DNA of 63,475 bases from NCBI GenBank assembly GCA_001818155.1, contig MHJU01000017.1:1-63475 (forward strand), read 5' to 3'. Position 1 is the stretch's first letter. Each line of letters begins with the position of its first letter. The notes below the pieces were generated by a model. The model worked only from the letters and a program-made list of their open reading frames with translations, had not been told where the DNA came from and searched no databases. Shown here piece by piece: positions 10,140 to 52,520 of the stretch. Source of the stretch: Candidatus Jacksonbacteria bacterium RIFCSPLOWO2_02_FULL_44_20 (GTDB lineage Bacteria; Patescibacteriota; Patescibacteriia; UBA9629). Made by a program: the position numbers and the translations under genes.

Positions 10140-12287
10140 TCAACGCTCCACGCGCAAAGTTCCCTCCCAAAAATCCTTGCCGTTTAAGTTTATAATCTCT
10201 TTTTTGTCAGTCATAAACAAAGAGAGGCGATATGTATGCGCGGCAAGAAGAGCGCGATCGGTTTTGAGAGTGAAACGAAAGACAGCAGTCTCGCCGGGGA
10301 GGATCGCGTCTTTTTTCGGATCCAAAGATACAGAGGCGGTTTCTATATCCAGCCAATCAGAAGCATCGTAAAACGGGCTTGCGCCGCCTTCGCTAGTTGA
10401 AACTTTCAAACCGGTTTTTCGCCTGATCCATGGTTTTGATCCATCGTTTTTAATCCGCACTTCAACTTTAACAGGCGTTTTCCCTTGTTTAATTTTTGAC
10501 GGAATCGTGTGCGAGACGATGCGCGCCTTGTAATCCGGTTCTTTTACAAAAACTCGCGTCTGATACAGCCCGCCTTTTACTTCAGAGCCGTCTTTTGTAT
10601 ACAATTGAAAAGTCAGGGTCGCGTCTCCTTTAGTTTCTAAAATTAAAGGCACGGCAAAGGTATGCGCGACGTCTTTGGGCACTATGTCGTTATTCTCTTT
10701 CCGAGTTTGCGTTTCTTTGATAAGCAGATACACATCGCCTTTTCCCCACTGCGCATCGCTTTTATTCTTAAAACGAACGGGAACAACAAAACTCGCTCCG
10801 GAAATGACTGATTGCGGAGATTCAGCGTTCACCCATAATGCGCGCGGAGTTGTCGCGACAACAGGTAGAGTTATAGGAACGATCTTACCGTTTCGCTCAT
10901 ATGATCCGGTTGCAATCGTCTCTCCTATCTTATGAAGCGCAATAACCTCCGTAGAAACTTCAACTACATCTGAAAGTTTTTGCTCGCCAAAAAGCGCGAT
11001 AAAATCCTGAACGCTTGCGATTGGCCGCAGAATGCCGCGCGATACGATGTAAAACACTCCTTCGCGCGACTTGATGAATTTTCCCTCATTGATTTTTTGC
11101 GGCGTTCCGGCGTAATATCGCGCGAGCTCCTCGCGAGTAATGTCGCCCGGCGCGAGGTTCGGATAATTTAACGCCGTGATCTCGGAATGCACCGGGTACT
11201 TAAATCCGTTTTGAATAAAATAAAACTCGCCATTTGTCGCTTTCACTAGCGCTCCTTGCGGATAGACCTCGTCTTTTGTAATTTGAACCGCGGGCGGATA
11301 CGAAGAGAGTTCATTTGAATTTACGGTTTCCACTTCTTCAGGATTAAATCCGAGAAGGCGGAATGTTTCATCGCCATCAATTTTTCTTTTGCGGCCGTTA
11401 ACGAGAAGGTACCGTTCACCAGTTTCATCCTGCACAAGAGAATAGTTTGAAAATTTAATTTCATGGCCGTCCGGATATTCTTCTAAAACTGCGCCTGAAA
11501 TCGTTATCGCGTCCCGGCTGTCTCGCTCCGAGAAAAATACAGAGGAAGAGCCGTACCGCCGTTTCGCGCCTCCGTCAATCAGCCAATACGAATTCCCGTC
11601 AGTCAAAACCGAGCCGTCCGGATACAAAAGCGATCCCCAGTACTGGTCCCAGAGTTTTGCGAAAAAATAGTTGCCGCCGATGTTATTGCCGGCGCCTCCG
11701 CGATACGGCGTATAATTATACAAGTTTGCGGTTGCCTGATTTACAGGCGTGATCGTAAAACCGTCTTGTGTCTTGAATATCTGCCCTTTCGCCCGGATAC
11801 CGCCTCTGCCTGCTTTGCGGATATAATCATTTTGGACACTGGCAAGAGCCTCAACCTGACGCGCAAACCCCTTGTATTTTTGAATTTTCGGATCTTTAAT
11901 ATTGCATCCGTCGCATACTCCAAACCCGGCGGCAAAATCAAGGGCTTTTTGAAGTTTCACAGGATCTTTATGATAACTACATCCGCGCACCAGGCATTGC
12001 TCATGATCAAGTTTTGTTAAAATAAACTTCGGGCTGATGCCGTTTACTTGCGCGGCGGTATGTATAATTTCAGCCGCGTTTTTTAGAACTCCGTCAACTG
12101 TATCGGAATAATTTTTGAGCGCGCTCTCATGTTTCTCTAAAAATGACTGTATCGCGCTTAGCGACATTGAATCTTTGTCTTTGAGCTCAAAATCGGTGAT
12201 GATGTTGTCGGGATTGAATGTAAAGGCGCGCGCGGAAAATACCGGAACAAAAATTAAAAAAAGAAAAAATACTATAAATCGTTTCAT
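10140..12287 (-). CDS. Secreted multi-domain surface protein (four ~55-aa repeats, C-terminal Ig-like modules)
   Basis: Start set at internal ATG (M98), which gives the signal peptide MKRFIVFFLFLIFVPVFSARA. The upstream extension overlaps the flippase gene. Repeat modules are shared with ORF 38165..39607. Confidence 0.6.
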   Translation of the reverse strand: MKRFIVFFLFLIFVPVFSARAFTFNPDNIITDFELKDKDSMSLSAIQSFLEKHESALKNYSDTVDGVLKNAAEIIHTAAQVNGISPKFILTKLDHEQCLVRGCSYHKDPVKLQKALDFAAGFGVCDGCNIKDPKIQKYKGFARQVEALASVQNDYIRKAGRGGIRAKGQIFKTQDGFTITPVNQATANLYNYTPYRGGAGNNIGGNYFFAKLWDQYWGSLLYPDGSVLTDGNSYWLIDGGAKRRYGSSSVFFSERDSRDAITISGAVLEEYPDGHEIKFSNYSLVQDETGERYLLVNGRKRKIDGDETFRLLGFNPEEVETVNSNELSSYPPAVQITKDEVYPQGALVKATNGEFYFIQNGFKYPVHSEITALNYPNLAPGDITREELARYYAGTPQKINEGKFIKSREGVFYIVSRGILRPIASVQDFIALFGEQKLSDVVEVSTEVIALHKIGETIATGSYERNGKIVPITLPVVATTPRALWVNAESPQSVISGASFVVPVRFKNKSDAQWGKGDVYLLIKETQTRKENNDIVPKDVAHTFAVPLILETKGDATLTFQLYTKDGSEVKGGLYQTRVFVKEPDYKARIVSHTIPSKIKQGKTPVKVEVRIKNDGSKPWIRRKTGLKVSTSEGGASPFYDASDWLDIETASVSLDPKKDAILPGETAVFRFTLKTDRALLAAHTYRLSLFMTDKKEIINLNGKDFWEGTLRVER

Positions 12288-12298
12288 AAAAAATAATC

Positions 12299-13735
12299 TC
12301 AAAACCTCATCACTTCTCTCACTGTCTCCTTCTTCACTCCTCCGATTGCGTATAAAATTCCTCCGTATAAAACTAATGAAAGCGGGAGGGCGATGAAAAG
12401 CGAAGCGTTGTGGAACACCCCGTTTGCGGGGCGGATAAAGTAGAGAGCGCCTGCCATTAGTATAGCAGAGATGATGGACTTCACCAACACGGAAACGCGC
12501 GGGACAAAATGAGTTTTTTTCCATACGACAACAAACGCCGCGGAAAACATGACTACCTCTCCTAATGCGGTGAGCCATGCGGCGGCAAAGTAGGAATAGC
12601 GCGGAATAAGCGCGATGTTAAGAACGATCATAAAGGCCGCCAAAATCGCGTAGTATTTTATCATTGTTTTTTGCGAGGAAACTGTGATAACTGTATGGGC
12701 AAAAATGGAGCCGATAAACATCATATACACTCCGATCATTAAAATAGAGAGCACCGGCGCTGACGGAAGAAACTCGCTTCCGCCCAAAAGAAGCACGATT
12801 GATTTTGCAAGAACCGGGGTGCCAAAAATGAGAGGCGCGCTCATAATAGCAAGCGCGTCAAACCCGCTTTGCATGTGAAAACGAAATGCCTCCTTACTTC
12901 CGCGTCCGTACGCGTCGTTCAAAATGGGAAAGAGAAGCCCCATAAATACGAGCGGCAAAGTAACGAGCGTTTCTATAATTCTATAAGGCATGCCGTAAAT
13001 GCCGACCTCGTAATCGGACACGTACCACGAAAGGATAATTGAATCTGCCTTAAAGTAGAGAAGATGAAACCAGATGCACACGGCAACCGGCCATGTGCGC
13101 GAGAGCACGCCTATAATGTATGAGGCGTCAACGCGCCATGTGAAGTCAATATATTTTCGCGCCAAAAGCCATGAGAGAAAAAATTGAGCGCAATTGCCGG
13201 CGACAACAGTGATGGTGAGCGGCACAAGCCCGACCTGAAAGCGCATCATGAGGATTGTCGCAAGAAGAAGAACGCCTCGTCCGATGATCTCGGAGAGGGC
13301 AGAGCGGGAGGAGACAAGATGTTTTTGAAAAACCGTCTGAAAAATCTGCGAAAGCCAGATAAATATATTGGAAAACGACATCAAAAATATCCCGAGCCGT
13401 ATCGCGGATTCGTACGGAGCGACGAGCGCAACCGCCGCCATGATAAGAAGATACATCGCGTTTAAGTACATCCTGAACATGAAATGCTGGCTTAGAACGT
13501 GATTTGATTCGCGCTTCGGGTGCGAAATGTCGTTTAAGACGATTAAGTATAGCCCAAGGTCGCCGATAATGCCTGAAAGCTGAACTATCGTGAGGATAAT
13601 GTGAAACTTGCCGTACTCGGAGGGTCCGAGGTATCGGAAAAGAAGCGTTGAGGCAAAGAGAGCAAGCACAGTGCCGACTGCCTTTCCGATAAATTGAATG
13701 AGCGTGTTGTGGGCAAGCGCGCGCGTGGTGGACAT
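12299..13735 (-). CDS. Polysaccharide/oligosaccharide flippase (MOP/Wzx family)
   Basis: About 12-14 TM helices. The N-terminus NTLIQFIGKAVGTVLALFASTLLFRYLGPSEYGKF is typical of Wzx-like proteins. Confidence 0.7.
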   Translation of the reverse strand: MSTTRALAHNTLIQFIGKAVGTVLALFASTLLFRYLGPSEYGKFHIILTIVQLSGIIGDLGLYLIVLNDISHPKRESNHVLSQHFMFRMYLNAMYLLIMAAVALVAPYESAIRLGIFLMSFSNIFIWLSQIFQTVFQKHLVSSRSALSEIIGRGVLLLATILMMRFQVGLVPLTITVVAGNCAQFFLSWLLARKYIDFTWRVDASYIIGVLSRTWPVAVCIWFHLLYFKADSIILSWYVSDYEVGIYGMPYRIIETLVTLPLVFMGLLFPILNDAYGRGSKEAFRFHMQSGFDALAIMSAPLIFGTPVLAKSIVLLLGGSEFLPSAPVLSILMIGVYMMFIGSIFAHTVITVSSQKTMIKYYAILAAFMIVLNIALIPRYSYFAAAWLTALGEVVMFSAAFVVVWKKTHFVPRVSVLVKSIISAILMAGALYFIRPANGVFHNASLFIALPLSLVLYGGILYAIGGVKKETVREVMRF

Positions 13736-28239: not shown

Positions 28240-29028
28240 TTACTCCACCTTGCTCAAAAGCCCCAACTCCCGCACGCGGCGGAACATGCGGGCGTAAAAA
28301 ATGGAGGCGAGAATAAGATAGACGAGGTTTAACACGAGCGCCCACCAAAAATGAAGCGCGGAGAAACCGCTTCCGGCAAACACGCCGCGCATGCCCTCAA
28401 ACACGTGTGTCGCGGGAATACTCCACGCTATGAACTGTAAAAATGAAGGCAAGATCGCAAGCGGATAAAATACCGCGGAGATCGGTTGCAATAAAAATCC
28501 AAGCGAAAACGCGAGTATCTGGGTTTCAGTGCCGTAGCGGAAAATAATCGCGGAAATAAAAATGCCGGCCGCAATTCCGAACAAAAACAGGTTCGCGATA
28601 AACGGTATGAGAGAAAATCCGAGCGTAAAAAGATTGAAGTGATAGAGCAAACCAGCAAGCGCGGAGATGTATCCGATGATAACGAATGTTTTCAGAACAC
28701 CGACAGCGATGCCCCCCAAAAGATACTCCCAAACTGTAAGCGGAGAGACGAAAAGATTAATGATATTGCGCGACCAAATGTCTTCCAAAAATGCAATCGT
28801 AACATCATGCTGTGACGTTATAAACACGCCCCACAAAATCACGCCGCCAAGAAGAAAGGAGGCGACGCCAGGCGCGTTCAACGCTGTTCTTTCTAAAAAT
28901 TGGCTCACAAATCCCCATAAGATAAGCTCCATCGTTGGCCAATAAAACACGTCCATCACCCGCGGGAGCGAGCGCTTTGAGTGGTACCAGTAGTGTAAAA
29001 TTATCGCGTTAATACGGTGGAGTTTCAT
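28240..29028 (-). CDS. ABC-2-type transporter permease
   Basis: Six TM helices in 262 aa, with an ABC-2 permease pattern. No ATPase gene is adjacent; the only ABC-2-type ATPase is at 37220..38143. Confidence 0.75.
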   Translation of the reverse strand: MKLHRINAIILHYWYHSKRSLPRVMDVFYWPTMELILWGFVSQFLERTALNAPGVASFLLGGVILWGVFITSQHDVTIAFLEDIWSRNIINLFVSPLTVWEYLLGGIAVGVLKTFVIIGYISALAGLLYHFNLFTLGFSLIPFIANLFLFGIAAGIFISAIIFRYGTETQILAFSLGFLLQPISAVFYPLAILPSFLQFIAWSIPATHVFEGMRGVFAGSGFSALHFWWALVLNLVYLILASIFYARMFRRVRELGLLSKVE

Positions 29029-29082: not shown

Positions 29083-29934
29083 TTAGACAGCGCTTGTGCC
29101 GCTTTGCCGATTATACACCGCCTGAAAATAATAGAACACCCACTGATTTGCCGATTTTCGCCCTTTGAAAAACAGGAGAGGCACGTCTGGAAACTCGGCG
29201 CACAAATCGCCAATAACGCGGGCGATAAAGGCGCCTTGGTAAAACTCGTTTTTTTCGGAAACAAAATCAGTGTACGATCCTTCAAACACAACGACGCGGT
29301 GAGGAAACTTTGCCATCTCCTGCAATTTTGCGCGAAACACATCAAGGTGCCCAAGCTCATGGAGAAAATTCTCGCGCGTCTTTCGTTCAACAATCGCAAC
29401 GATCGCATCGCCAATGCAAAGCGCGTAATCGCCTGATTGAAGCGGCGCGCGTCTTGTCTCTATCGCGCCAAACTGATACGGATACCGCTCGTTTGAGTCA
29501 ATGAGCACTGTGTACTCGGCTCGTTTGGTTTTAGGAATATACGCGCCGCGCCGTTCGGCAATACTGGACGATTGGGTAATCCAAAACACCTGCGTGTAAA
29601 ATGTGCCCGGATATTTTTTATATTCTCTTTGAAGAAAAATAAACCACGAGCGTTTATTTTTTGGACGGTTAAGAATAACCGTAAGCCGTTTTCCGTAACG
29701 GCGAATGGAAAATATGGCGCATTCATCAACTGGTTTGACTTTCGGAACCGTTTTTGATCCAACTATACCCTCAAACTTGCAAAAGACATTTTTTCCAGGG
29801 CCGGGCCATTTCTCCGCTGTACGCAAAAAAACAAAACTCCCGTGCTTTTCCTCAATAAAAAGCGAGAAGGGATATTTTTTATCGTCATTGCTTTTATAAA
29901 TGCGCCAGCGTAAGGGCAAGTTATGGGTAGGCAT
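29083..29934 (-). CDS. ERCC4 (XPF/Mus81-like) nuclease-domain protein with unknown N-terminal domain
   Basis: VLIDSNE ... LQSGDYAL ... VERKTRENF follows the ERCC4 pattern D/E...GDY...ERK. The residue after ERKxxx is N, not the canonical D. Confidence 0.55.
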   Translation of the reverse strand: MPTHNLPLRWRIYKSNDDKKYPFSLFIEEKHGSFVFLRTAEKWPGPGKNVFCKFEGIVGSKTVPKVKPVDECAIFSIRRYGKRLTVILNRPKNKRSWFIFLQREYKKYPGTFYTQVFWITQSSSIAERRGAYIPKTKRAEYTVLIDSNERYPYQFGAIETRRAPLQSGDYALCIGDAIVAIVERKTRENFLHELGHLDVFRAKLQEMAKFPHRVVVFEGSYTDFVSEKNEFYQGAFIARVIGDLCAEFPDVPLLFFKGRKSANQWVFYYFQAVYNRQSGTSAV

Positions 29935-29968
29935 AAAGATAAAAGCGACTGCTTTACTTAACTAAATA

Positions 29969-31540
29969 CTATTCCTTATTTATAACCACCCGCACCTCCA
30001 GAATTCTATCCACCCGAAACACGCGTGTGTCGCGGCGGGTATGGCAGTAGGCTTCAGTGCCGATGTAAGATTTTCCCATGTATTCCATTTCTCCCACAGT
30101 TTTGGGCGTGATAACGCGGCGGGATTTTTCATCCTGCGCTTTGAGGTAGGTTATTTCAAGGTCGCGATTTTCGGCGATGGCGCGTTCAATGAGCTTCACT
30201 TTGTCTTTAAGCGACAATGCTTTTTCAGATTTGGCGTACTGATATTTGGTCAAGAATTTCACCACGCGCCAATCCATCCAGATATGCCCTTTTTTTATCG
30301 GCTTTTTCAAAACCAACCCTTCAAAATTTGTGCACCGCGAAAGCGCCACATAAAGCTGTCCGTGCGCAAATGTGCCGCGTTCAATGTCAACAATCACTTT
30401 CTCAAATGTTTTCCCTTGACTTTTGTGAATGGTGACTGCCCATGCAAGCATCATCGGATATTGCGTGAACGATCCAACCGTATCCGATTCAATCTCCCTC
30501 GTCGCTTGATTGTATCTAAAATTATAGAGATCCCATGTATACGGACTCACCTTCTCAACATCTCCGTCTTGAAGCTGAACTTCTATGCATTCGTTCTCGC
30601 TTTCCGCATCGTATGAGACATTAACGATAACGCCAATCGTGCCGTTTATCCATCGCCCTGCTGAATCGTTGTTCACCATCATCACCTGACTGCCGACTTT
30701 GAGAGATAAGTTTTCCGATGTCGGAAGGTGACTCTTGTCAAACGCGCCTCGCGCTACGCCTTGAAATGTGTACAACTTCCCTTTTAGTTTCGCAAGTTCT
30801 CGCGCGTTTATTGCTTCAGCGCCCGCGTTTGTCGTTGTGAGATATATGTACTGCTCGTGTTTTTGCGGCTCAAATTCCGGGTCATGGCGCTTGTTTAGCG
30901 TGCCGATCTCCTCAACCCCTGCGGTATTATTGCGAATTGCATTCAGAAGCGAGATAAAACGATCGTCAGTTTGGCGGTAAATTTTTTCAAGCTCAATGAT
31001 TTCAGGCTTGAGTTCAGAAAACACGCGCGCGTCAAAAAAATACGGGCTTTTGTAATGCCCGGCAAAAATTTCGCGCTCGCGCGATGTTACCACAGGGGGA
31101 AGTTGATACAAGTCGCCAAACGAGATCAGCTGTACGCCTCCAAACGGCGCGCGCTTTTTGGTCCCGTGCAGGCGTAAAAATATATCAATGCAATCCATCA
31201 AATCCGCGCGCACCATGGACATTTCATCTATCACAAGAGCTTGTAATTTTTTGTACGTCTCGCGATCTTTTGCGTGTACTGCAACATCTTTAACGCTCGC
31301 AGGGGTAATATCCGGCTTGAAACGAAAAAACGAGTGAATGGTTTGCCCCTTCACATTCACCGCCGCGACTCCTGTTGGCGCAAGCACCACAAGCGACTTT
31401 TTCGCGCGCTCCCGAAACACCTGCAAAAGCGTTGACTTTCCTGTTCCCGCTTTGCCAGTAACAAACACGTGCCTGTCGCCTTGCTCCATAAGCGCGAGAG
31501 CCTGCTTAAAATGCGGGTTGAGGTCTATTTTAAAACGCAT
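29969..31540 (-). CDS. Pif1/RecD-like SF1B helicase with C-terminal WYL-like domain
   Basis: Walker A GKAGTGKST. LVIDEMSMV. GDLYQLPPV. TIHKSQG. C-terminal ITYLKAQDEKSRRVITPKTVGEMEYMGKSYIGTEAYCHTRRDTRVFRVDRI. Start set at internal ATG (M10). Confidence 0.75.
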   Translation of the reverse strand: MRFKIDLNPHFKQALALMEQGDRHVFVTGKAGTGKSTLLQVFRERAKKSLVVLAPTGVAAVNVKGQTIHSFFRFKPDITPASVKDVAVHAKDRETYKKLQALVIDEMSMVRADLMDCIDIFLRLHGTKKRAPFGGVQLISFGDLYQLPPVVTSREREIFAGHYKSPYFFDARVFSELKPEIIELEKIYRQTDDRFISLLNAIRNNTAGVEEIGTLNKRHDPEFEPQKHEQYIYLTTTNAGAEAINARELAKLKGKLYTFQGVARGAFDKSHLPTSENLSLKVGSQVMMVNNDSAGRWINGTIGVIVNVSYDAESENECIEVQLQDGDVEKVSPYTWDLYNFRYNQATREIESDTVGSFTQYPMMLAWAVTIHKSQGKTFEKVIVDIERGTFAHGQLYVALSRCTNFEGLVLKKPIKKGHIWMDWRVVKFLTKYQYAKSEKALSLKDKVKLIERAIAENRDLEITYLKAQDEKSRRVITPKTVGEMEYMGKSYIGTEAYCHTRRDTRVFRVDRILEVRVVINKE

Positions 31541-31585
31541 AGTAAAAATATAAATACCCGAAATCAAAAATAAGTGGAATACTGT

Positions 31586-31804
31586 TTACATCACCGCCTC
31601 AAAAACATCCGATGGCTTTTCAAGCGCCTTAAACTCCCACACGCCAAAGTTGCTATTCAAATTCACCGCTCTAACCAACTCTTTTGCGGATGTCCATTTT
31701 GCGCTATCCTGATCTGTTTTCCTGCCCTTAACTTCTAAAATTAAATAACGATTATCCGCAAACTTAATTATGAAATCCGGAAAGATAGTAAATTTCAAAT
31801 TCAA
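31586..31804 (-). pseudogene. Remnant of the PD-(D/E)xK C-terminal module of a restriction/helicase-type gene
   Basis: FPDFIIKF...YLILEVKGRKTDQDSAKW resembles the nuclease C-terminus of type III Res-like proteins. No ATG (TTG only). In frame with, and 9 codons after, the TAG of the 1514-aa gene. Confidence 0.35.
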
Positions 31805-31828
31805 GGTGGTCGTTTTTTGCCCATGATA

Positions 31829-34800
31829 CTAAATAACCGGCTCTATTCCCATATCCTCCAATTTCACCCAAAGCGTCTTTAACCCTTGCTCTTTGTTTTT
31901 ATAAAAAGCACTGCCAGTAATTCGCCAAAACTCCCACCCCGCTCTTCTTAAAACATTTTCCCTCCTTAAGTCAGCCTCCCAATCCGTATGATATTGATCA
32001 CCATCGCACTCTACTGCCAACCGAGTGCTTTCTCCCTGTATAACCAAATCAATACTGTAACCTGCAATCTCAAACTCTGGAATAACTTTATACCCTTTAT
32101 TTAAGATGATATTCCCTACATCAAACGGAAATTCAAACGGTCCGTGTTTTCTTTGTTCAAGAGCTTGTTTTAATGCCTCACGACCCCATTTTATTTCCTC
32201 TTGTTGAGGATTGTAAAACCAATCAAGTATTTTTGCTCGTAAATCATCGGGGTTGGTTAATTCTTTTCGTACAAGAGAATGGAAGAGAATCATTTTGTCT
32301 CTAGCGCGCGACATAGCGACATTTACTCTTTGTTTATATTCTTTTTTATTGATAGTCAATGGCGAAATGCTGTTCTCTGGATTATTTTGATCAGGTGCCT
32401 TAACCATAGAAATGAACATTATATCTCTCTCATCTCCTTGGAACGCATAAGGATTTCCCGCAATAATCTTCCTTTTTTCTATTTCCTCTTCGCTAATTTT
32501 TTGTCTAATTAAATCAGTTATGAATCTACCCTGATCATTTCCTAAAAGCGTTACAACTCCAAAAGTTGTAGGGCGAGTGCCGTCTTTTCCATCAGGTCTC
32601 CCATCATATTGTGAATCATTTATCATCTCAACTAGTTTACTTACAAGCTCTTCTGCTTCTGGTTCATTCACTTCATTATTGATATTCATAAACCCGCTCT
32701 CAACATATATCGCCTCTAACGCAGGAGTTAATTTCCATTTCGATTGAGGATATCTTAACACTTTTAACTGGCCGTCATAGCACAGTTTATTGCTAAAACC
32801 GATAATTTGCTCTACAGATCTAAAATGCTCCAATAACCTTACTCCTTCAGACATCGTTACTTCTGCTACATCAAAGAGGCTTGAGGTTACAGAAAACTGT
32901 TCGCTGTGGGGTATATTTGAGAGATGTTTGGTGATAAGTCCTATAACATCCTCTTGATTGATAAAAGATGTTGGACTTATTTGTTCAGGATCGCCTACAA
33001 CTAAAACTTTTTTCCCTAGATATGCAATATTAACCCCTCGAACATCTACCTGACTCGCCTCATCAAAAATTACAACATCAAACATACCAGCTTTTGGTTC
33101 TGAAAACATATGCAGAACTTTTTCAAGCGGCATAATCCAGATTGGCACCGCATTTTTTGCTTCTTGTTCTTGTAATGCTTCTCGCGCTTTTTTCTCCCAG
33201 TAAGGCCAATATTTACCAGTTCTTTTTCCTATTTTTTTATCGCATTTTGCGTATGCCGCTAAAGCTTTGCGTTGGGATGGCGTAACCTTCTCTTTCTGTT
33301 TTTTCCACGCTGTTGTTGCGATCAGTTCTGCTTCCTGATTTTTTTCTTGATTTTCTGTACGATCCAGTTCTTTTTGAAGTTCTGTTACGCTTTTATCTGA
33401 ATGGATCTCTTCAAGCCAAGACGATATTCGCGCAAGCCCCCAAGCTGTTGCAAGGTTTCCTTGTATTTTATATTTTCCATACTCATCTATTATACTTTCT
33501 TGTATTTCATTGAACAATTTTGGAGCCAAGCGAGATATTTTTTCTTTTAGCTCGCGCAGTTTTTCGGAGTCCCTCTTCTTTTGGTGGAGTTCTGAAAGTT
33601 GTTCATAAAGTTCGCTTAGTTTTTTTTCATTGCGATTATCTATAGCTAAAGATATATCCGCGGCTATCTGATGTTTATTTTTCGCTTTTAGTTCATCCTT
33701 CCAGTTGGTAAAAATATGTTTATACTTGTCTAAATCAAAACTTGCCAATAATGATGTCAAAATAGCAATAAATTTTTCAACCGATTCTTTGTCGGTATAG
33801 GTAAAATTAGAAAAAATTTGATTTTGCTCTATAAATTCTCTTATATCACTGAAGATTTCTTCATAACGCAATATCCTTTCCATATTTTTCAAACGGTCAT
33901 CAAACTTATAAAGCACAAAAGGTTCTTCCAGTTCCTCAAAATCAGAAATATCAGATTGCTTAAATGCCTGATCCCATAAAATTTTGACCTCTATAACTAA
34001 CTGCTCAAGTGTGAGTTTTTTCTTGAGAAGTAAAATAGCTTCTTTTTTTCCAATATCTGAGGAATGAAAAGTAAAATTTTGTAAAATATCTTTTGCGTTT
34101 TTTGACAAGCCAATTTTTTGCAGGAAACCTAAAGACGATCGGTTCCCTGTCTTCTTTTCAATCTCATTAACCGCTTCTAATAAACTTTTAACTGGAAGAT
34201 TAGTATTGTACAAAATATTATGACCTAATAAATTAGCTTGCAGTTGGCGCATTTGAGCGCCTTTTTCTTTTAACCTTTCAAAAATTCCATTCTGCCATTT
34301 TTCTTTTTCCTCGCTATTGTTCAAAATCAACGCAAATAATCTGTCTTCCCATTTTTTATCCATTGCATTTAAAGCGGCATGCGCCGATCCCGCTCTTTGC
34401 AGTATCTGTCTGATCCTTTCTTCTTCAAAAATAGGTGCGCTGTTGAATTTCTTTTGCGCAAGATATTTTTCATAGCGTTTATTGAGAACAAGAGCTTCTT
34501 CATAGTGCTCAAAAAATTTCTTTACATCTTCTATTTTAGGGAGCCGTCCAATTTCCGGCATCCATTGTTCAAAATAACCGCGTTCTTCTTTGGTAAGTCG
34601 CGCAAGCAGATTCACTGTGTTTGTAATATCTTCTTCAGTAAAATCTAATTTTGCATCTTTTGTAATTTTGTCTTTTAACCACATTTTACCGCTTGCGCTT
34701 CCATCCGCCAATTCTTTAGCTCCTTGTGTTGGGGTAAGACACCTGTCTTCAATGAGAAATTTTTCTTCAATATCAAGGAGAACCCACTTTTTTATTCTTG

Positions 34801-36373
34801 ATAACAAGGCCGCCTTTTCTTTGCGTATTTCCTTCAACTGCGCTCTTATTTCTTCAATTTTTTTATCCGTAAATTTCGTAGTATCGTCCAAATTAGCGTT
34901 AATAGTTTTGACTGACATCTGTAGATCATCATGCCGTGAATTACTCTCAACCTGCGATACGATTAAATCTTTAATTTTCTCGGGGATTTTATCTTTTAGC
35001 ACTTCCAGTGCTTTCCCTGTTTGAGATGTTACCAATACGGATTTGCCTTGAGCTAAAAAACGCGAAAGAAGGTTTGCAATGGTATGGCTTTTACCAGTTC
35101 CGGGAGGGCCTTGTACTACAACGCCGTATCTTGCCTCAATTTTATTTACAATTTTTTTTTGGTCATCGTTCCATGTCAATGGAAAATATAGCTCCCCATC
35201 CGCAATAGAAACACTCTCTTCTCCCGCATGGTTTTCTGCGAGCGCAATTTCACCGCCGGCAAGTTCTGTGATAAAAGGGGGCAACTCATTAGCTTTCTCA
35301 ATATCTTGCTGAATTTTCTTTGCGTATTTTGCCCAATCAATATTGGATTTTTTACGCAATAGAATTGTGGGAAAGTGCCAATAGGTAGGCACTTCGCTCA
35401 TTTCAGGTTCAGGAATTTCTTCGGAAAAATTTTCTATTCCATTTGGTGAAAGGTATCCGACAATTTCACTACCTTTTAATTTAAGCGCCTGCTCACTCCA
35501 AACATCGTACCCATCAGAATTTAAAATTTTTGATTGTTCATGAATATCAAGGATATTTGGTATATCCAAACCATCTAAAAAAGAGGTTTCAAAGGCCGTT
35601 TTTAGCGAGTTATCTTTTCTGACCTCAATTTTTTTCTCTTCAGGAAAAAATTCTAAAGTAATAGGGGTAACAAAAAATGGGTGAAAAATCTTTTCGTTTT
35701 CTGTCTTCCATGTAAGTAAGTCATGAGTCCATAACAAATCAAAATTTTCCTGTTCTGTTTTTAGAAATGTTCTTAATCCGTATAAATCATCATAAACTTG
35801 ATTTGCCCTAAAAGTTGGCTCATTTTTTTGTCTCCATTCTTCCCATGATCCAGCTATGTAATTGTCGTACAACTCTTTAAGTTCTGGGAAATCTGTAAAG
35901 AAAAATTCTATATCCCTTTCATGTATTTTGCTCCAGTTTCCTTTTTCATCCTTTGTAATCCAACTATGTAGCATCTTTGGAATATCTTGCTTTTCCGCTT
36001 TTTGAAAATTTTCAAACGCCTTAACCCTCATGTTATCATCCGAAAATTGAATTTTTCTGAATATGGATTCTTTATATTTTGGTTGAGAAAATTCATGACT
36101 ATCAAGCACAACCCATTCCATTAGTTCTAGGGGAAGATTAGGCAAAGGTTCTAATTCATGCTTTTTTACAGAGAGAAAGAGATAATCATCTTGGTTTGAT
36201 TCATGAAAATTTTTAACGAAAAGATTGTCGCTTTGCGGGAAACTCCTAATTTGGCGCATCCATTCCTGTTCTGCCAAATTTCGAAAATCCCTTCTAGTAT
36301 CAATGTTAAGAGAGAATAACTCTTCAAGGTATTTGAAGATATTTATTGCGTTAGTTTTGATTTTTTCAAGCAT
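31829..36373 (-). CDS. 1514-aa SF1 (Upf1/DNA2-like) helicase fused to a C-terminal DUF559/Vsr-like endonuclease; candidate defence protein
   Basis: VVQGPPGTGKSH, VIFDEASQV, VGDPEQISP and VNVAMSRARDKM. C-terminus IDLVIQGESTRLAVECDGDQYH...RAGWEFWRI. The gene is visibly AT-rich relative to its neighbours. Confidence 0.8.
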   Translation of the reverse strand: MLEKIKTNAINIFKYLEELFSLNIDTRRDFRNLAEQEWMRQIRSFPQSDNLFVKNFHESNQDDYLFLSVKKHELEPLPNLPLELMEWVVLDSHEFSQPKYKESIFRKIQFSDDNMRVKAFENFQKAEKQDIPKMLHSWITKDEKGNWSKIHERDIEFFFTDFPELKELYDNYIAGSWEEWRQKNEPTFRANQVYDDLYGLRTFLKTEQENFDLLWTHDLLTWKTENEKIFHPFFVTPITLEFFPEEKKIEVRKDNSLKTAFETSFLDGLDIPNILDIHEQSKILNSDGYDVWSEQALKLKGSEIVGYLSPNGIENFSEEIPEPEMSEVPTYWHFPTILLRKKSNIDWAKYAKKIQQDIEKANELPPFITELAGGEIALAENHAGEESVSIADGELYFPLTWNDDQKKIVNKIEARYGVVVQGPPGTGKSHTIANLLSRFLAQGKSVLVTSQTGKALEVLKDKIPEKIKDLIVSQVESNSRHDDLQMSVKTINANLDDTTKFTDKKIEEIRAQLKEIRKEKAALLSRIKKWVLLDIEEKFLIEDRCLTPTQGAKELADGSASGKMWLKDKITKDAKLDFTEEDITNTVNLLARLTKEERGYFEQWMPEIGRLPKIEDVKKFFEHYEEALVLNKRYEKYLAQKKFNSAPIFEEERIRQILQRAGSAHAALNAMDKKWEDRLFALILNNSEEKEKWQNGIFERLKEKGAQMRQLQANLLGHNILYNTNLPVKSLLEAVNEIEKKTGNRSSLGFLQKIGLSKNAKDILQNFTFHSSDIGKKEAILLLKKKLTLEQLVIEVKILWDQAFKQSDISDFEELEEPFVLYKFDDRLKNMERILRYEEIFSDIREFIEQNQIFSNFTYTDKESVEKFIAILTSLLASFDLDKYKHIFTNWKDELKAKNKHQIAADISLAIDNRNEKKLSELYEQLSELHQKKRDSEKLRELKEKISRLAPKLFNEIQESIIDEYGKYKIQGNLATAWGLARISSWLEEIHSDKSVTELQKELDRTENQEKNQEAELIATTAWKKQKEKVTPSQRKALAAYAKCDKKIGKRTGKYWPYWEKKAREALQEQEAKNAVPIWIMPLEKVLHMFSEPKAGMFDVVIFDEASQVDVRGVNIAYLGKKVLVVGDPEQISPTSFINQEDVIGLITKHLSNIPHSEQFSVTSSLFDVAEVTMSEGVRLLEHFRSVEQIIGFSNKLCYDGQLKVLRYPQSKWKLTPALEAIYVESGFMNINNEVNEPEAEELVSKLVEMINDSQYDGRPDGKDGTRPTTFGVVTLLGNDQGRFITDLIRQKISEEEIEKRKIIAGNPYAFQGDERDIMFISMVKAPDQNNPENSISPLTINKKEYKQRVNVAMSRARDKMILFHSLVRKELTNPDDLRAKILDWFYNPQQEEIKWGREALKQALEQRKHGPFEFPFDVGNIILNKGYKVIPEFEIAGYSIDLVIQGESTRLAVECDGDQYHTDWEADLRRENVLRRAGWEFWRITGSAFYKNKEQGLKTLWVKLEDMGIEPVI

Positions 36374-36473
36374 ATGATCAATTTTAGTTTACGCTTTGCC
36401 CCGCTTCCTGCCCGCGTGCGAATACGCCTCAATGGATATTCTTTTATTTTTTGATGTTCTTCGTTGCATAAAA

Positions 36474-36761
36474 TTAGGCAAGCGGAAATCCGCCTGAAAT
36501 TTTATCAAGCATTTTTATAGTAAGGTCTACTGAAGGATTTTTTGTATTCCGAAAAAAAACTCGTTTTCCAAACTCTTTTACGATCGGCGTTAGAAACTCG
36601 TCGCCCCATGAAGGGGTAAAGGTGGTAACGCCTGTAAAATCTATTTCTACAGATTCTTGAGGCGCTAAAGCTCGAAGAGTTGGCAGATACGCCAAGTACG
36701 CTTCCCTGCCGTCCTGGCGCGATACAAGCAACGTGCCAAATTTTTTTATTTCTATGCGCAT
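36474..36761 (-). CDS. STAS-like (DUF4325-type) small protein
   Basis: 95 aa. VEIDFTGVTTFTPSWGDEFL is the pattern of STAS-like anti-anti-sigma-type domains. Confidence 0.55.
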   Translation of the reverse strand: MRIEIKKFGTLLVSRQDGREAYLAYLPTLRALAPQESVEIDFTGVTTFTPSWGDEFLTPIVKEFGKRVFFRNTKNPSVDLTIKMLDKISGGFPLA

Positions 36762-36765
36762 ATGT

Positions 36766-37173
36766 TTAAAATGAAATCATCGCAATACATCCGCGCAAGT
36801 ATGTGCGCGCGCTTGAGATACGCATAACCGGATCATTTTTTTCTAGCTTAAGAACCGCGCCGCCTGTTTGAAAAAAAAGTTTCAACGGATACTGAACCAC
36901 TGTCTCTCGCACAAATTTTAATCCGTTTCCCCGCGCTTCCGGCGCGCGGCCGGAAATAACTTCTGTAAACGCTATACGGAGCGCTTCTTTATCATCGCGT
37001 ATACCATTCATAACATTTCGCAATGTTTGCAAAATTCCACGGCCGCGATCCGCAAGCGCAATAATTCTTTGATCCAAGCGATAGCCAAAAAAAATACCAA
37101 GAATATCAGGCCAATTTCCAAGATTGTGATCAAAAGAGTTATTGCCTATTTCTCCTGCAACGGCAATGATCAA
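36766..37173 (-). CDS. GHKL (histidine-kinase-like) ATPase-fold protein, possibly 5'-truncated
   Basis: N-box-like EIGNNSFDH at residues 8-16. DRGRGI. GNGLKF. TTG start only. The reading frame is open upstream into the 3' end of the ABC ATPase gene, without any ATG. Confidence 0.5.
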   Translation of the reverse strand: MIIAVAGEIGNNSFDHNLGNWPDILGIFFGYRLDQRIIALADRGRGILQTLRNVMNGIRDDKEALRIAFTEVISGRAPEARGNGLKFVRETVVQYPLKLFFQTGGAVLKLEKNDPVMRISSARTYLRGCIAMISF

Positions 37174-37219: not shown

Positions 37220-38143
37220 TTACCCCTTCGCCAACTTCAAAAACACCTCTTCCAAATCCGGTTTGTTAATGTCTAAATCATAAATGCCGAAATTTTCGCG
37301 GGAGATTGCCTGCATGGTTTCTCCCAAGTCGTCCGCGCTGGTTTTGATGTGCAAGTGCCCTGCGCTTTCAATTTCAAACTGCCATCCGCGCGTGTTTATA
37401 AATTCAACAAACGCGCTCTCTTTCCCGCTCGCAAAGGCTACTTCTACATAATAATCCCGCGCCGCGCGTTTCAATTCTTCCGGAGCGCCTTCTGCCACAA
37501 TCTTCCCTTTTTGCAAAAAAATCACGCGATCGCACATCTCCTCAACCTCCGACATATTGTGAGACGTGTATAAAAAAGAAACCCCGCGCTCACGGTGAAT
37601 ACGCCGCAAAATATCGCGTACCTTAAAAGCGATGTCCGGGTCCAAGCTTGCGGTCGGTTCGTCCAGAAGCAAAAATTCCGGATCGTTCAGAAATGTTTTT
37701 GCAAGAATCACGCGCGTTTTCTGGCCGCTTGAAAGTTTGTAAAACAAGGTATGCAAAAGATCAGAAATTTCAAGTTCATCCGCAACAGCGGCGATTTTTT
37801 TCCCGAGTCTACGGACGTTATACAATTTCCCGAAGAAATATAAGTTCTCGCGCACTGTGAGACGAGACATAAATTGAATATATGTTGAGGAATAATTGAT
37901 GCGCGAAAGAATTTCCCCGCGGTTCTTTACAAGGTCTTTCCCAAACACACTGATCTCCCCTTCTGTCGGAGAAATCAATCCTAAAATCATCTCAATCGTG
38001 GTTGATTTTCCCGCGCCGTTTGGGCCCAAAAGCCCGAGTATCTCGCCTTTTTTAATATCAAAACTGATGTCGGAAACAGCTGTTTTATCCTTAAATCGTT
38101 TGGTAAGGTTGCGAACAGTGAGAATCATAAAAGAATATGCCAC
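37220..38143 (-). CDS. ABC transporter ATP-binding protein (ABC-2 / DrrA-NatA-like subfamily)
   Basis: Walker A GPNGAGKSTT. Signature LSSGQKTRV. Walker B LLLDEPT. Confidence 0.85.
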   Translation of the reverse strand: MAYSFMILTVRNLTKRFKDKTAVSDISFDIKKGEILGLLGPNGAGKSTTIEMILGLISPTEGEISVFGKDLVKNRGEILSRINYSSTYIQFMSRLTVRENLYFFGKLYNVRRLGKKIAAVADELEISDLLHTLFYKLSSGQKTRVILAKTFLNDPEFLLLDEPTASLDPDIAFKVRDILRRIHRERGVSFLYTSHNMSEVEEMCDRVIFLQKGKIVAEGAPEELKRAARDYYVEVAFASGKESAFVEFINTRGWQFEIESAGHLHIKTSADDLGETMQAISRENFGIYDLDINKPDLEEVFLKLAKG

Positions 38144-38164: not shown

Positions 38165-39607
38165 TTACTCCACTATTCCGCCTGTCTCATAGTGAGAAAG
38201 TTCCGCCTCGCCGACCGCAACAACAACTGCGTCGCCGCGCGCGCGGATGCGAGTCCATGTTTCGCCGGAGCGCAGATGATATTTCTTGCCGCGCGAGATT
38301 AAAAATATCTTCTTGCCCGCCTCAATAGTAAGGTACACCTCATCAGGATACCCAATCTCTAACCCTTCCGGATACGAGTCCAAGTTCTCGCGGCTTGCAA
38401 ACTCAATTCTGCGTGGCGAGGGAAATCGCAGACCCAAAATGGTTTCGTTTGGAATCCACCGTTTTCGCCCATGCTCAATCATATACACGGTCGGGTCGTT
38501 TTCCTGCTTTACAAGCGTGCCGTCTGTAAAAGGCGCGACCAATTTTTGACCGAGCACTGCCGTGGCTGATGGCTCTTCCGGAAGCGGCTCTGGTTCTTTT
38601 TTGTCCTCGTTATCCTCTGTGTCTCGTTCCTCGCTTGTATCTTCCGGAATCGCGGGGCTGTTAGTGAAAGTTGGCGGAATAATCATTCCTGCCGGTGGCG
38701 GAGGCGGGGGTGGCGGCGCAGGCGGAGTGTAAACAATTTTTCGCACAGGATACGAGGCGCCGGCAAGCGCGATTGCCGTATAGGAGGTTGTATTAACCTT
38801 AAAGGCATTTTCAACGTTCTTCTCAGATTCAAACCAACCATCGGGTGTTTGAAGCGACTGCAAAAAGGCAATCGGAGTGTTGCCTACCTTAGACCACGCG
38901 GCGCTTTCGGGGTCTTCGCCAAGTTTATACAGCATACTAACTACCCATGCGGTGGTATCCGCGTTAGAATTCGTTCCATATGGACTTAGAGGATCAAACG
39001 GAAATCCTCCGTCAGCGTTTTGGGAAAGTTTAATATAGGAAACTGCGTTTTGAATTGCTGTGTCTCCCAATGAAACCCCGGCTTCTAGCATCGCCATCAC
39101 GGCCATTGCGGTGTCGTCAACGTCAGATGATCCGATCATAAACCCGAATCCGCCGTCGCTATTTTGATTGTTAAGAATAAATGTTTTGCTTTGTAGAATA
39201 GCCGAATCGTCTGCTGAAACGCCTGCGGCGATGAGCGCAAGGATGCCGAAAATATCGTCATTTAATGTTTGAGGATCCCCGAGTTGATTGTTTGCTGAAA
39301 ACGAAAGTAATTTTGCGACAAGGTCTTCTTTTGCAAATGAACGCGGGTCCCGCCCGAGCGCCGCAATCCCCAAAATTGGCCCGGCGCATGCGATTGCGAA
39401 ATCGCACTTTGCCTCTTTGAGATGATCCTCGGCGATGTCTTCTTCACCAAGAACGTAAAGCGCCTGCGTACTCCAATAATTTTGCGGGGCATTTCTAAGA
39501 TAAAGGCTGGCGAGTTGATTTTTTGACGGCGCCGCGCGAAGCGGTGTTACAAGTCCGGTTGCGATTGCGATAATCGCGAAAAAGGCGAGATGTGATTGTC
39601 GTCTCAT
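38165..39607 (-). CDS. Secreted alpha/alpha-toroid (prenyltransferase/terpene-cyclase-like repeat) protein with poly-Pro linker and two C-terminal surface repeats
   Basis: Signal peptide ending LRAAPS. Repeats QNSDGGFGF, QNADGGFPF and QTPDGWF. Linker PPAPPPPPPPPAG. C-terminal modules resemble those of ORF 10140..12287. Confidence 0.6.
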   Translation of the reverse strand: MRRQSHLAFFAIIAIATGLVTPLRAAPSKNQLASLYLRNAPQNYWSTQALYVLGEEDIAEDHLKEAKCDFAIACAGPILGIAALGRDPRSFAKEDLVAKLLSFSANNQLGDPQTLNDDIFGILALIAAGVSADDSAILQSKTFILNNQNSDGGFGFMIGSSDVDDTAMAVMAMLEAGVSLGDTAIQNAVSYIKLSQNADGGFPFDPLSPYGTNSNADTTAWVVSMLYKLGEDPESAAWSKVGNTPIAFLQSLQTPDGWFESEKNVENAFKVNTTSYTAIALAGASYPVRKIVYTPPAPPPPPPPPAGMIIPPTFTNSPAIPEDTSEERDTEDNEDKKEPEPLPEEPSATAVLGQKLVAPFTDGTLVKQENDPTVYMIEHGRKRWIPNETILGLRFPSPRRIEFASRENLDSYPEGLEIGYPDEVYLTIEAGKKIFLISRGKKYHLRSGETWTRIRARGDAVVVAVGEAELSHYETGGIVE

Positions 39608-39639
39608 AAAAATAAAAACTCTCTTGCGAACAAAGAGAG
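39608..39639 (-). terminator. Intrinsic terminator / RBS-sequestering hairpin of the riboswitch expression platform
   Basis: Minus-strand RNA reads CUCUCUU-UGUUCGC-AAGAGAG followed by UUUUUAUUUUU and then the AUG at 39607. Confidence 0.6.
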
Positions 39640-39835
39640 ATTTGCGATTTCTAATCGCCGATTATTAAAAATTAAAAATTGGAAATTAAAAATTTCTTAA
39701 ATGTCTCTCTGCTCGAAGAGAAGTATTACAAGCGAGTCCATAGACCTGGCTTATTCCAAAACTAGTCGGAAATCACAGTTGCGGCACAGCCGCGGATTTA
39801 AACCGCGTTCCTTGGACTGCTCTATTTGTCAATTG
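39608..39835 (-). promoter_or_regulatory. Cobalamin (B12) riboswitch, aptamer about 39731-39822 plus expression platform
   Basis: Minus-strand RNA GAGCAGUCCAAGGAACGCGGUUUAAAUCCGCGGCUGUGCCGCAACUGUGAUU matches the conserved GGGAA..GGUG.AAAUCC..GC.G.CCCGC.ACUGU core. It is followed by the B12-box-like AAGCCAGGUCUAUGG. Confidence 0.75.
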
Positions 39836-39964
39836 AAAACAGAGTAGTCTAAAAAGAGGATAGCGTCAAGCCTGAATATGCCACAATCTTCACAAGGAAT
39901 AAAGATGTTGTTATACTGTACTCTTAAACTCTTAAAAATTATAAATAATAAACGTACTTACTCT

Positions 39965-40999
39965 ATGGAAATACTATCACTTTTCAAGCTCGGTGTAGAA
40001 AAGGGCGCGTCTGACATACATATTATTGTGGGGAAACCTCCTGTAATACGAATTGACGGCGTGCTCAATGAAATAGAAGGCGCGGCCTTCACGAGGGGAA
40101 GCGCAAAAGAGAGTATTTATTCTCTTCTCACATCGTTCCAGCAAAAACTTTTTGAAACCGACCGCGAGCTGGATTTCTCATACGAAATTAAAAATGTCTC
40201 GCGCTTTCGCGTGAATATCCATTTTGAAAAAGAGTCGCCGGGGCTTGTCGCACGCATTGTATCTACTACAGTTCCCATATTGGACGAACTCCTTATGCCG
40301 CAGATTGTAAAAAAATTTCTCAAGATGCGCGAAGGGCTCATTTTGGTGACAGGCCCGACAGGATGCGGGAAATCAACAACTCTTGCGGCGATGATTAACG
40401 AAATCAACGAAACGCGCAACTGTCATATTATAACATTAGAGGATCCGATTGAATTTTTATTCACCGCTAAAAAAAGCATCATACGCCAGAGGCAACTCGG
40501 AAACGACATGAAATCCTTCAAAGAAGGGCTAAAACATGTGCTTCGTCAGGATCCGAATGTCATTATGGTCGGCGAAATGCGCGACCTTGAAAGCATTGCG
40601 GCGACCATTACGCTTGCGGAAACCGGGCATCTTGTGCTTGCGACGCTTCACACATTCTCCGCGGCGCAAACCGTTGACCGCATTATTGATTCCTTTCCGC
40701 CGTATCAACAACCGCAAGTCCGTCTTCAGGTTTCAATAACCTTGCGCGCAATTATCTCACAGCAACTTTTGCGGGGAGCGCGCGGGGGCAGAGTTTCATC
40801 GCGCGAAATTCTCATAAATAACAACGCTGTCTCAAATCTTATCAGAGAAAACAAAATTGCGCAGATAAAAACAGTAATACAGACATCGGCGGAAGAAGGC
40901 ATGATTACTATGGACAACGACTTAAAACGCCTGGTTGCTGAAGGACTCGTTGATATAGAAGACGCAAAGGCGCATATGTTGAATCCGGACCAATTATAA
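39965..40999 (+). CDS. pilT: Type IV pilus retraction ATPase PilT
   Basis: GASDIHI. Walker A GPTGCGKSTT. VIMVGEMRD. ATLHT. Start set at internal ATG (M30), giving a typical 344 aa. Confidence 0.85.
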   Translation: MEILSLFKLGVEKGASDIHIIVGKPPVIRIDGVLNEIEGAAFTRGSAKESIYSLLTSFQQKLFETDRELDFSYEIKNVSRFRVNIHFEKESPGLVARIVSTTVPILDELLMPQIVKKFLKMREGLILVTGPTGCGKSTTLAAMINEINETRNCHIITLEDPIEFLFTAKKSIIRQRQLGNDMKSFKEGLKHVLRQDPNVIMVGEMRDLESIAATITLAETGHLVLATLHTFSAAQTVDRIIDSFPPYQQPQVRLQVSITLRAIISQQLLRGARGGRVSSREILINNNAVSNLIRENKIAQIKTVIQTSAEEGMITMDNDLKRLVAEGLVDIEDAKAHMLNPDQL

Positions 41000-41002
41000 A
41001 GT

Positions 41003-41992: not shown

Positions 41993-42067
41993 GCCTCTGT
42001 AGTTTAATGGATAAAACGTCGGGCTTCGAACCCGAAAATGCAGGTTCGATTCCTGCCGGAGGCACCA
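41993..42067 (+). tRNA. tRNA-Arg (anticodon TCG), encoded CCA
   Basis: Acceptor GCCTCTG/CGGAGGC. Anticodon arm TCGGG-CTTCGAA-CCCGA. T-arm GCAGG-TTCGATT-CCTGC. Confidence 0.9.
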
Positions 42068-42089
42068 TCCCGTAAACAGGATGTTCCAC

Positions 42090-42166
42090 GCGCCCATAGC
42101 TCAATTTGGCAGAGCGGCTCGCTCTTAACGAGAAGGTTGCAGGTTCGATTCCTGCTGGGCGCACCA
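42090..42166 (+). tRNA. tRNA-Lys (anticodon CTT), encoded CCA
   Basis: Acceptor GCGCCCA/TGGGCGC. Anticodon loop CTCTTAA. T-arm GCAGG-TTCGATT-CCTGC. Confidence 0.85.
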
Positions 42167-42617: not shown

Positions 42618-42628
42618 ACACTAAAAAA

Positions 42629-52437: not shown

Positions 52438-52468
52438 TGGTGTGTCTGCAATATAGCATATCCTTTTT

Positions 52469-52520
52469 TTATCCACAAGTATCATTTTATCCCTATAATA
52501 TGGGGAAAAACTGTGTATAA
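52469..52520. promoter_or_regulatory. DnaA-box cluster in the dnaA-cca intergenic region
   Basis: Perfect TTATCCACA at 52469-52477. TTATCCCTA at 52487-52495. TGTGTATAA (reverse complement TTATACACA) at 52512-52520. The surrounding spacer is AT-rich. Confidence 0.5.

Follow-up and report, generated by a model that had tools for sequence, protein, structure and literature searches.

The locus described here lies on contig MHJU01000017.1 (GenBank assembly GCA_001818155.1) of Candidatus Jacksonbacteria bacterium RIFCSPLOWO2_02_FULL_44_20, a member of the Candidate Phyla Radiation (CPR, Patescibacteria), and probably encodes, under repression by B12, a surface component of the system by which this organism acquires corrinoids. 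Within the stretch of DNA that was analysed (63,475 nt, hereafter the window), a gene on the reverse strand encodes a secreted alpha6/alpha6 toroid protein and directly follows an adenosylcobalamin (AdoCbl) riboswitch. An earlier interpretation made from the letters alone (the sequence-only reading) had proposed B12 scavenging for this protein, a proposal now backed by a riboswitch found across the family, by fusion of the toroid to DUF4430 in relatives and by neighbouring genes for energy-coupling factor (ECF) transport and B12 use. That the protein belongs to corrinoid acquisition, whether as a capture protein in its own right or as an accessory or docking half, is very likely; the chances that the toroid alone is a corrinoid binder are about even. 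The locus comprises the following features.

39690..39838, reverse strand: aptamer of an AdoCbl (cobalamin-clan) riboswitch, located in the 5' leader ahead of the toroid coding sequence (Rfam RF01482, 52.9 bits)
39609..39639, reverse strand: terminator-like hairpin CTCTCTTTGTTCGCAAGAGAG (39639..39619), then a T-run ending at the ATG (terminator scan)
38165..39607, reverse strand: coding sequence of the secreted toroid protein, 480 aa, stop codon included (ATG open reading frame (ORF), Pfam, AlphaFold2 (AF2))
39533..39607, reverse strand: Sec signal peptide, residues 1-25, with predicted cleavage between LRA and AP (read directly from the sequence)
38738..39520, reverse strand: alpha6/alpha6 toroid with QxxDGG repeats, residues ~30-290 (PF00432, PF13243, AF2)
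38528..38737, reverse strand: disordered linker, poly-Pro then acidic, residues ~291-360 (sequence; predicted local distance difference test score (pLDDT) 45-58)
38168..38527, reverse strand: two C-terminal repeats of ~58 aa, residues ~361-480, EccB-repeat-like, a putative wall anchor (AF2, Foldseek)

The match to RF01482 (clan CL00101) covers the model over its whole length, positions 1-149, and its 52.9 bits (E 7e-7) lie just above the gathering score of 50, a marginal score for an element that is real. The 3' end of the aptamer lies 82 nt upstream of the ATG, in line with the placement of the gene directly behind a B12 riboswitch by the sequence-only reading. In the minimum free energy fold of the leader (z = -4.6), the 3' hairpin of the aptamer (CUCUUCGAGCAGAGAG) pairs with the terminator sequence and forms an antiterminator alternative, which is the arrangement expected of a transcriptional OFF switch. 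The leader of the toroid gene would then act as an AdoCbl-dependent switch of this type, as its sequence suggests. A -35/-10 pair seen by eye (TTGACG, 17 nt, TACTCT; 39869-39841, reverse strand) was absent from the promoter scan output and is not claimed.

The product of the gene begins with a signal peptide (MRRQSH, LAFFAIIAIATGLV, TPLRA, then AP after the cleavage point, all by inspection), which is modelled at a pLDDT of ~50, is of the Sec type as judged by eye and shows no lipobox Cys on inspection. Residues 41-265 match Pfam Prenyltrans (6.8e-10) and SQHop_cyclase_C (3.1e-9), with QxxDGG-type motifs at Q148 (QNSDGGFGF), Q196 (QNADGGFPF) and Q253 (QTPDGWF) and a degenerate copy at Q108. 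The AF2 model of this region consists of 12 helices (residues 31-281, pLDDT >95), i.e., a complete alpha/alpha toroid, and it is followed by the linker (residues ~291-360, PPAPPPPPPPPAGM...EDTSEERDTEDNEDKKEPEPLPEEPS), which is disordered in the same model. The positions that are near-invariant in an alignment of 69 family sequences (A1, with per-column counts covering residues 100-290) are all kept in the window toroid except S218, which is Thr here. The signal peptide, the three or more QxxDGGF-type toroid repeats and the poly-proline/acidic linker of the sequence-only reading are all present, and its failure to recognise the protein as a member of BtuF, BtuG, BtuH, CbrT or BtuM agrees with Pfam and NCBIfam scans, which give only toroid families. 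The same 480-aa sequence is recorded on 20+ metagenome contigs, many of them from groundwater, and an identical protein in an identical gene order occurs on NCBI contig MHJV01000043.1 of the metagenome-assembled genome GCA_001818175.1. The closest named relatives of the protein are from Candidatus Jacksonbacteria.

The association with a cobalamin riboswitch extends to orthologues and to the wider family. Two orthologues of the same architecture, P0002 at locus L005 (62% identity) and P0004 at locus L006 (53%), have an AdoCbl riboswitch directly upstream (52.2 bits), so that the element is kept in two of the three other orthologue lineages. The wider survey covered 80 loci (~490 kb in total, mostly CPR, with a few Dehalococcoidia and archaea) from GTDB species representatives that encode toroid relatives, with a 31-sequence query alignment. 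At the Rfam gathering score, a cobalamin-clan riboswitch (RF01482, RF00174 or RF01689) was found in 31 of the 80 loci, always upstream of the gene and on its own strand, and in 28 of the 31 it directly precedes the toroid gene; no cobalamin-clan match reached the gathering score elsewhere in the ~490 kb. When 17 AdoCbl-type elements were aligned, compensatory changes appeared in 9 of 12 predicted pairs, and an nhmmer profile built from this alignment regained 33 of 34 known elements and added 40 loci, all with the element upstream and on the same strand, bringing the count to 71 of 80. In the E-value mode of Rfam, 10 of 12 re-tested extra loci gave cobalamin-clan matches at 37.7-48.2 bits, under threshold, and the loci left with no riboswitch match are chiefly archaeal and from Dehalococcoidia. 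The riboswitch association is close to universal in the toroid family, and the check that the sequence-only reading had set for itself, i.e., whether orthologues also sit behind such elements, came out positive at L005 and L006 and, with the family profile, at 71 of the 80 wider relatives. As a side observation, the Rfam gathering thresholds (50 for RF01482) overlook more than half of the cobalamin riboswitches in CPR toroid loci (e.g., L016, L029, L030, L052, L079 and 35 others).

The domain make-up of the relatives points in the same direction. In 62 of the 72 complete ones the toroid is followed by DUF4430 (PF14478), the domain that Burroughs, Balaji, Iyer & Aravind named SLBB (Burroughs et al., 2007; PMC1796856). 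This domain is the beta-domain of transcobalamin. Most relatives have the same domain order as the eukaryotic carriers, toroid then SLBB, and in a family profile the DUF4430 part aligns, weakly and in the correct register, to human transcobalamin-2 within its beta-domain (5no0, E 0.034; 2bb5, residues 333-401). The window toroid is 40-50% identical to the toroids of these DUF4430-bearing proteins. Other toroids without DUF4430 are riboswitch-controlled too, among them those of L043 (with PG_binding_1), L075 (with DUF11) and L024. Clustered at 50% identity, the family as a whole counts 235 clusters at E<=1e-30, a number that rises to 1883 at E<=1e-10.

Neighbouring genes add a link to transport and B12 use. 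Directly downstream of the toroid gene, 70 of the 80 loci encode a protein of ~172 aa with a signal peptide, an immunoglobulin (Ig)-like (Cep192/MSP-like) domain and a C-terminal transmembrane (TM) helix (L014-L093, e.g., L020:4942-5463), and 23 loci encode, at +2 or +3, a DUF6580/ECF-S-like membrane protein (PF20221; L015:5860-6408, L036:5202-5762 and 21 more). The latter, at riboswitch-controlled loci, are candidate corrinoid S-components. The B12-dependent ribonucleotide reductase (RNR) NrdJ is encoded in four loci, and a BtuR/CobO adenosyltransferase in three. More distant homologues include fusions between the toroid and an ECF S-component in Thermoleophilia-type Actinobacteria; in three such operons, a Cobalamin riboswitch (68-91 bits) is followed by two genes (~370 and 232 aa, no Pfam family), a DUF4430 protein, EcfT, EcfAA' and the ECF-S::toroid fusion; a PduO-type adenosyltransferase lies close to two of the three. 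The coordinates of these actinobacterial ECF-S::toroid operons are:

L098:3067-9590
L099:2613-9836
L100:2588-9857

The DUF4430 domain of the relatives, together with their ECF-type uptake and B12-use neighbours, is a better link to transcobalamin than the one that the sequence-only reading had, which was the toroid itself. The eukaryotic transcobalamin, intrinsic factor and haptocorrin (PF01122) have the general alpha6/alpha6 barrel fold in common with the window toroid, and the likeness to the transcobalamin alpha-domain holds for this fold class; specific homology was detected neither by sequence nor among the best 50 of 728 Foldseek matches. The window protein has no PF01122 match at E<=0.1, its own sequence matches include no transcobalamin chain, and by sequence its toroid differs from the eukaryotic carriers in grouping with cyclases and prenyltransferases (squalene-hopene cyclase at E 2.5e-31 with the family profile). 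The window protein also differs from these carriers in having no beta-domain.

Downstream of the toroid gene the window encodes an ABC ATPase, and a probable permease partner lies 8 kb off.

37220..38143, reverse strand: DrrA/ABC-2-type ABC ATPase, starting 21 nt past the toroid stop (Pfam ABC_tran 7e-33; NCBIfam drrA 1.4e-62)
28240..29028, reverse strand: ABC-2 permease, the probable partner of the ATPase (PF01061, PF12698)

The terminator scan found no terminator between the toroid gene and the ATPase gene, and the two are probably co-transcribed and so under the same riboswitch. The ATPase orthologue at L005, with 86% identity, again follows the toroid gene, here with a major facilitator superfamily (MFS) gene between the two. 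Between the window and L005, the toroid proteins are 62% and the ATPases 86% identical, which indicates that the surface protein evolves much faster. A similar ATPase is found at +2 in L053 and L057 and is absent from L001, L006 and most loci. Because of this patchy distribution, no conclusion was drawn on the ABC-2 transporter as a conserved partner.

In the mechanism that we propose, low intracellular AdoCbl would leave the leader in its antiterminator form and the toroid gene would be transcribed, probably along with the ABC ATPase. Binding of AdoCbl to the aptamer would instead allow the terminator hairpin beside the ATG to form and transcription to stop; here the aptamer and the hairpin are observed, and the switching is what their arrangement suggests. 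The protein would be exported by Sec and freed of its signal peptide, the two EccB-like C-terminal repeats may hold it on the cell wall, as a weak fold match suggests, and the Pro-rich/acidic linker would keep the alpha6/alpha6 toroid off the wall. The toroid would then help to capture corrinoid supplied by the surroundings or by a host cell, a role suggested by the riboswitch, domain and operon context of the family, and the corrinoid would presumably be handed to a membrane importer encoded outside the window. In most relatives the toroid would work with a fused DUF4430/SLBB domain, and in Actinobacteria it is fused to an ECF S-component and the operon encodes DUF4430 as a protein of its own. 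The Jacksonbacteria form appears to have lost the fused DUF4430, and its toroid would accordingly either bind corrinoid alone or cooperate with a partner encoded elsewhere.

Several observations weigh against a corrinoid-capture role for this protein. One orthologue lineage (P0007, 43% identity; L001 and L014) has no riboswitch match even at E<=1; its upstream gap, to a divergent PilT gene, measures just 155 nt (L001:5845-6001), and this lineage (Jacksonbacteria RIFOXYB2/C2) has lost the riboswitch. The ATPase gene behind the toroid gene is of the exporter type (DrrA/ABC-2) and of no known B12 importer, and no B12 importer is visible in the 63-kb window. Hidden Markov model searches for DUF4430 found none in the window protein, in the whole window or in the orthologue loci, and neither the Ig-TM partner nor DUF6580 occurs in the window or in the Jacksonbacteria loci. 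By both sequence and fold, the closest solved structures are class II terpene cyclases and the beta-subunits of prenyltransferases, and the best 50 of the 728 PDB matches that Foldseek gave for the full-length model are all cyclases or prenyltransferases, with no transcobalamin chain among them; specific homology to the transcobalamin alpha-domain is not shown by this comparison, nor is it contradicted. Corrinoid-binding data for any family member were not found in the searchable literature. In intrinsic factor, the beta-fragment is said by Fedosov et al. to be the high-affinity half, and the alpha-fragment alone reportedly binds weakly. Since the window protein has no DUF4430, high-affinity corrinoid binding by this protein alone is something that we infer.

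A different division of labour, to which we give a smaller though still appreciable chance, is that the toroid is the accessory or docking half of a "split transcobalamin". In this case a separate SLBB/DUF4430 protein, or a B12-binding protein of a host or other foreign source, would capture the corrinoid first, and the wall-anchored toroid would close over this complex or receive the ligand. The two intrinsic-factor fragments assemble around cobalamin with the beta-fragment binding first, the actinobacterial operons place DUF4430 and the toroid on separate proteins under one riboswitch, CPR relatives fuse the two domains, and the window form has the toroid only. However, neither the 63-kb window nor the orthologue loci contain a DUF4430 gene, and autonomous function fits equally well with the other toroid-only variants, which are riboswitch-controlled and carry wall or surface modules.

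It is improbable that the protein, while regulated by B12, serves another ligand or task, its expression being no more than coupled to B12 status and the ABC-2 system exporting something; the ligand could be a lipid, an isoprenoid, a different tetrapyrrole or a molecule on a host surface. The nearest relatives by sequence and fold do bind isoprenoids, the downstream ATPase, so similar at L005, is exporter-type, and the reviewers of the 2007 paper cautioned that the ligands of SLBB proteins may be diverse (PMC1796856). Against this stands a context that is specific to B12, with a near-universal riboswitch and the co-occurrence of DUF4430, ECF-S, BtuR and NrdJ, and B12 riboswitches are established regulators of B12 uptake, B12 synthesis or B12-independent isozymes.

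The sequence-only reading had named, as a result that would count against it, a structural match only to catalytically intact enzymes; the best matches are indeed enzymes, but family members differ at the position of the catalytic general acid. These best matches are class II terpene cyclases (SsDMS, 7xq4/8zg1; squalene-hopene cyclase, 1gsz/2sqc), which have QW-type repeats in common with the window protein, and where drimenyl diphosphate synthase and squalene-hopene cyclase have their catalytic DxDD(T) motif, the latter has D162-V-D164-D165-T166 in the alignment. Among the 69 family members, however, the general-acid position 164 is split between Asn (35) and Asp (34), and at position 165 just 31 have Asp, with Thr in 19 and Met in 14. 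Cyclases build their active-site cavity between two toroid (beta-gamma) domains, whereas the window protein has a single toroid of ~260 residues with no two-domain cleft; it is also riboswitch-controlled and secreted, away from prenyl diphosphate pools. The hopene cyclase model TIGR01507 gives 31.8 bits against a cut-off of 431. With the motif not conserved, the architecture wrong and the cyclase scores far under their cut-offs, terpene cyclase activity was rejected, an enzymatic role of the window toroid appears unlikely, and catalysis by the protein as a class II terpene cyclase or a prenyltransferase-like enzyme is the explanation to which we attach the very least weight. The labels "terpene cyclase/mutase family protein" and "prenyltransferase/squalene oxidase repeat protein" are almost certainly misleading for this family. 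A thioester domain (TED) of the alpha-2-macroglobulin type (PF07678) was likewise discarded: its 15.6 bits fall short of the cut-off of 22, and the sequence has no CxEQ motif, its only Cys residues being C68 and C74.

The preferred interpretation, a riboswitch-controlled corrinoid-capture protein on the cell surface, has a precedent. Burroughs et al. (2007; PMC1796856) described secreted bacterial toroid+SLBB proteins whose operons also contain CbiO/CbiQ-like genes, assigned to them a predicted role in B12 scavenging and proposed them as the source of animal transcobalamin, a prediction made without riboswitches or CPR genomes. In light of this work the kind is not an unrecognised one, which corrects the sequence-only reading; what is new is the SLBB-less form with putative wall-binding repeats. 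The window protein resembles the 2007 proteins in its signal peptide, QW-type toroid, surface-tethering C-terminal modules and B12-uptake context, and differs from them in having no SLBB/DUF4430 and in having a DrrA-type ABC ATPase rather than CbiO/CbiQ in its operon. The CbiO/CbiQ-like (ECF) operon feature is thus missing from the window and present in the actinobacterial relatives.

Other known B12 systems offer partial parallels. ECF-CbrT and BtuM recall the relatives that are fused to or adjoin ECF S-like proteins (PF07155, PF12822, PF20221), EcfT/EcfAA' and cobalamin riboswitches, but as described these systems have no extracytoplasmic capture protein, and no ECF component is encoded in the window. 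With the surface B12-capture lipoproteins BtuG and BtuH of Bacteroides and with the periplasmic BtuF, the window protein would have its proposed role in common, i.e., riboswitch-controlled extracytoplasmic corrinoid capture ahead of a membrane transporter. The folds, in contrast, have no relation to each other, BtuG being a beta-propeller and BtuF belonging to the class III periplasmic binding proteins; there is no Pfam or NCBIfam match, and anchoring in the window protein would be by putative wall-binding repeats rather than by lipid.

The two C-terminal repeats (residues ~361-418 and 419-480) each fold in the AF2 model as strand-strand-strand-helix-strand-helix, and they reach a pLDDT of 79 when modelled alone. 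Their best Foldseek match is to the periplasmic repeats of EccB, a type VII secretion protein (7np7_B4, E 3.8e-4), followed by 3x3n, 4kk7 and 5cyu. The EccB matches share a fold with the two repeats and are weak (E 4e-4 to 1e-2, TM ~0.35), with no sequence similarity; that to the endolysin LysIME-EF1 (6ist) is far weaker (E 0.34). A resemblance between EccB repeats and PlyCB, a wall-binding subunit, has been pointed out, and wall binding of EccB is proposed, not proven. With moderate confidence, then, the C-terminal repeats are a probable peptidoglycan anchor; of the two surface-anchor-like repeats in the sequence-only reading, the repeats are there and the anchoring remains putative. A class A penicillin-binding protein is encoded in the window, which indicates that the organism has peptidoglycan. 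The possibility that the repeats are a cryptic SLBB/beta-grasp B12 domain was rejected, given an hhalign probability of 0.2% against the DUF4430 profile and the Foldseek matches to EccB repeats. Separately, the same repeat of ~56 aa occurs in at least three copies (residues ~333-515) in an 812-aa ORF (listed ATG) at 10140..12578 on the reverse strand, and is therefore a module shared within this Jacksonbacteria genome, probably for wall binding.

Elsewhere in the window, a low-GC (36%) island at 29083..37173 separates the ABC ATPase from its probable permease. It encodes an ERCC4 nuclease, a PIF1-WYL helicase, a 1514-aa SF1 helicase with MTES_1575/DUF559, and a pair consisting of a 135-aa protein and a DUF4325 (STAS-like) protein; the sister strains at L008 and L013 have an rve transposase in its place. 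The island (29083-37173) looks like a mobile defence-type insertion. On the other side, beyond the riboswitch (39878-41944, forward strand, and 42237-44827, reverse strand), lie genes for a PilT-like T2SSE ATPase, a cNMP-binding/GAF protein, a response regulator and a 7TM-GAF histidine kinase, with two tRNA genes at 41993-42163, and this PilT-side neighbourhood is syntenic in all orthologue loci. Farther away are two paralogous AAA_14/DUF4143 ATPase genes (48397-49662 and 56864-58396, both on the reverse strand) and a DnaA gene (51070-52485), the latter suggesting a probable position of the window close to the replication origin.

With their tiny genomes, CPR organisms live as obligate auxotrophs that lack cofactor biosynthesis, and many of them rely on a B12-dependent RNR. 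To our knowledge, the ways in which Gram-positive-type and CPR bacteria acquire B12 are largely unknown. In the searchable literature we found nothing relevant on CPR together with cobalamin riboswitches or on Patescibacteria together with B12 and RNR, no mention of DUF6580, none of the riboswitch link or of CPR members of the toroid family, and no experimental follow-up of the 2007 prediction (PMC1796856). The locus and the ~235 or more family clusters offer a concrete testable system, made up of a surface toroid with or without a transcobalamin beta-domain, a cobalamin riboswitch and conserved uncharacterised partners. Corrinoid binding, if true, would test the 2007 hypothesis of a bacterial origin of animal transcobalamin, and would provide an annotation for thousands of genes now named as of the terpene cyclase or prenyltransferase type.

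A broader proposal, which we put forward tentatively and consider possible rather than probable, is that the toroid, and not SLBB, is the constant core of a widespread and nearly always riboswitch-controlled corrinoid-capture system in CPR and Actinobacteria, with the Ig-TM and DUF6580/ECF-S proteins as partners and with the SLBB-less Jacksonbacteria toroid possibly delivering its ligand to a non-canonical import route of the ABC-2 or MFS type. If this were true, the family would represent a bacterial "split or fused transcobalamin", and the locus would give CPR bacteria their first B12-uptake system that is tractable by experiment, as well as a living model of the ancestor that animal transcobalamin had in bacteria.

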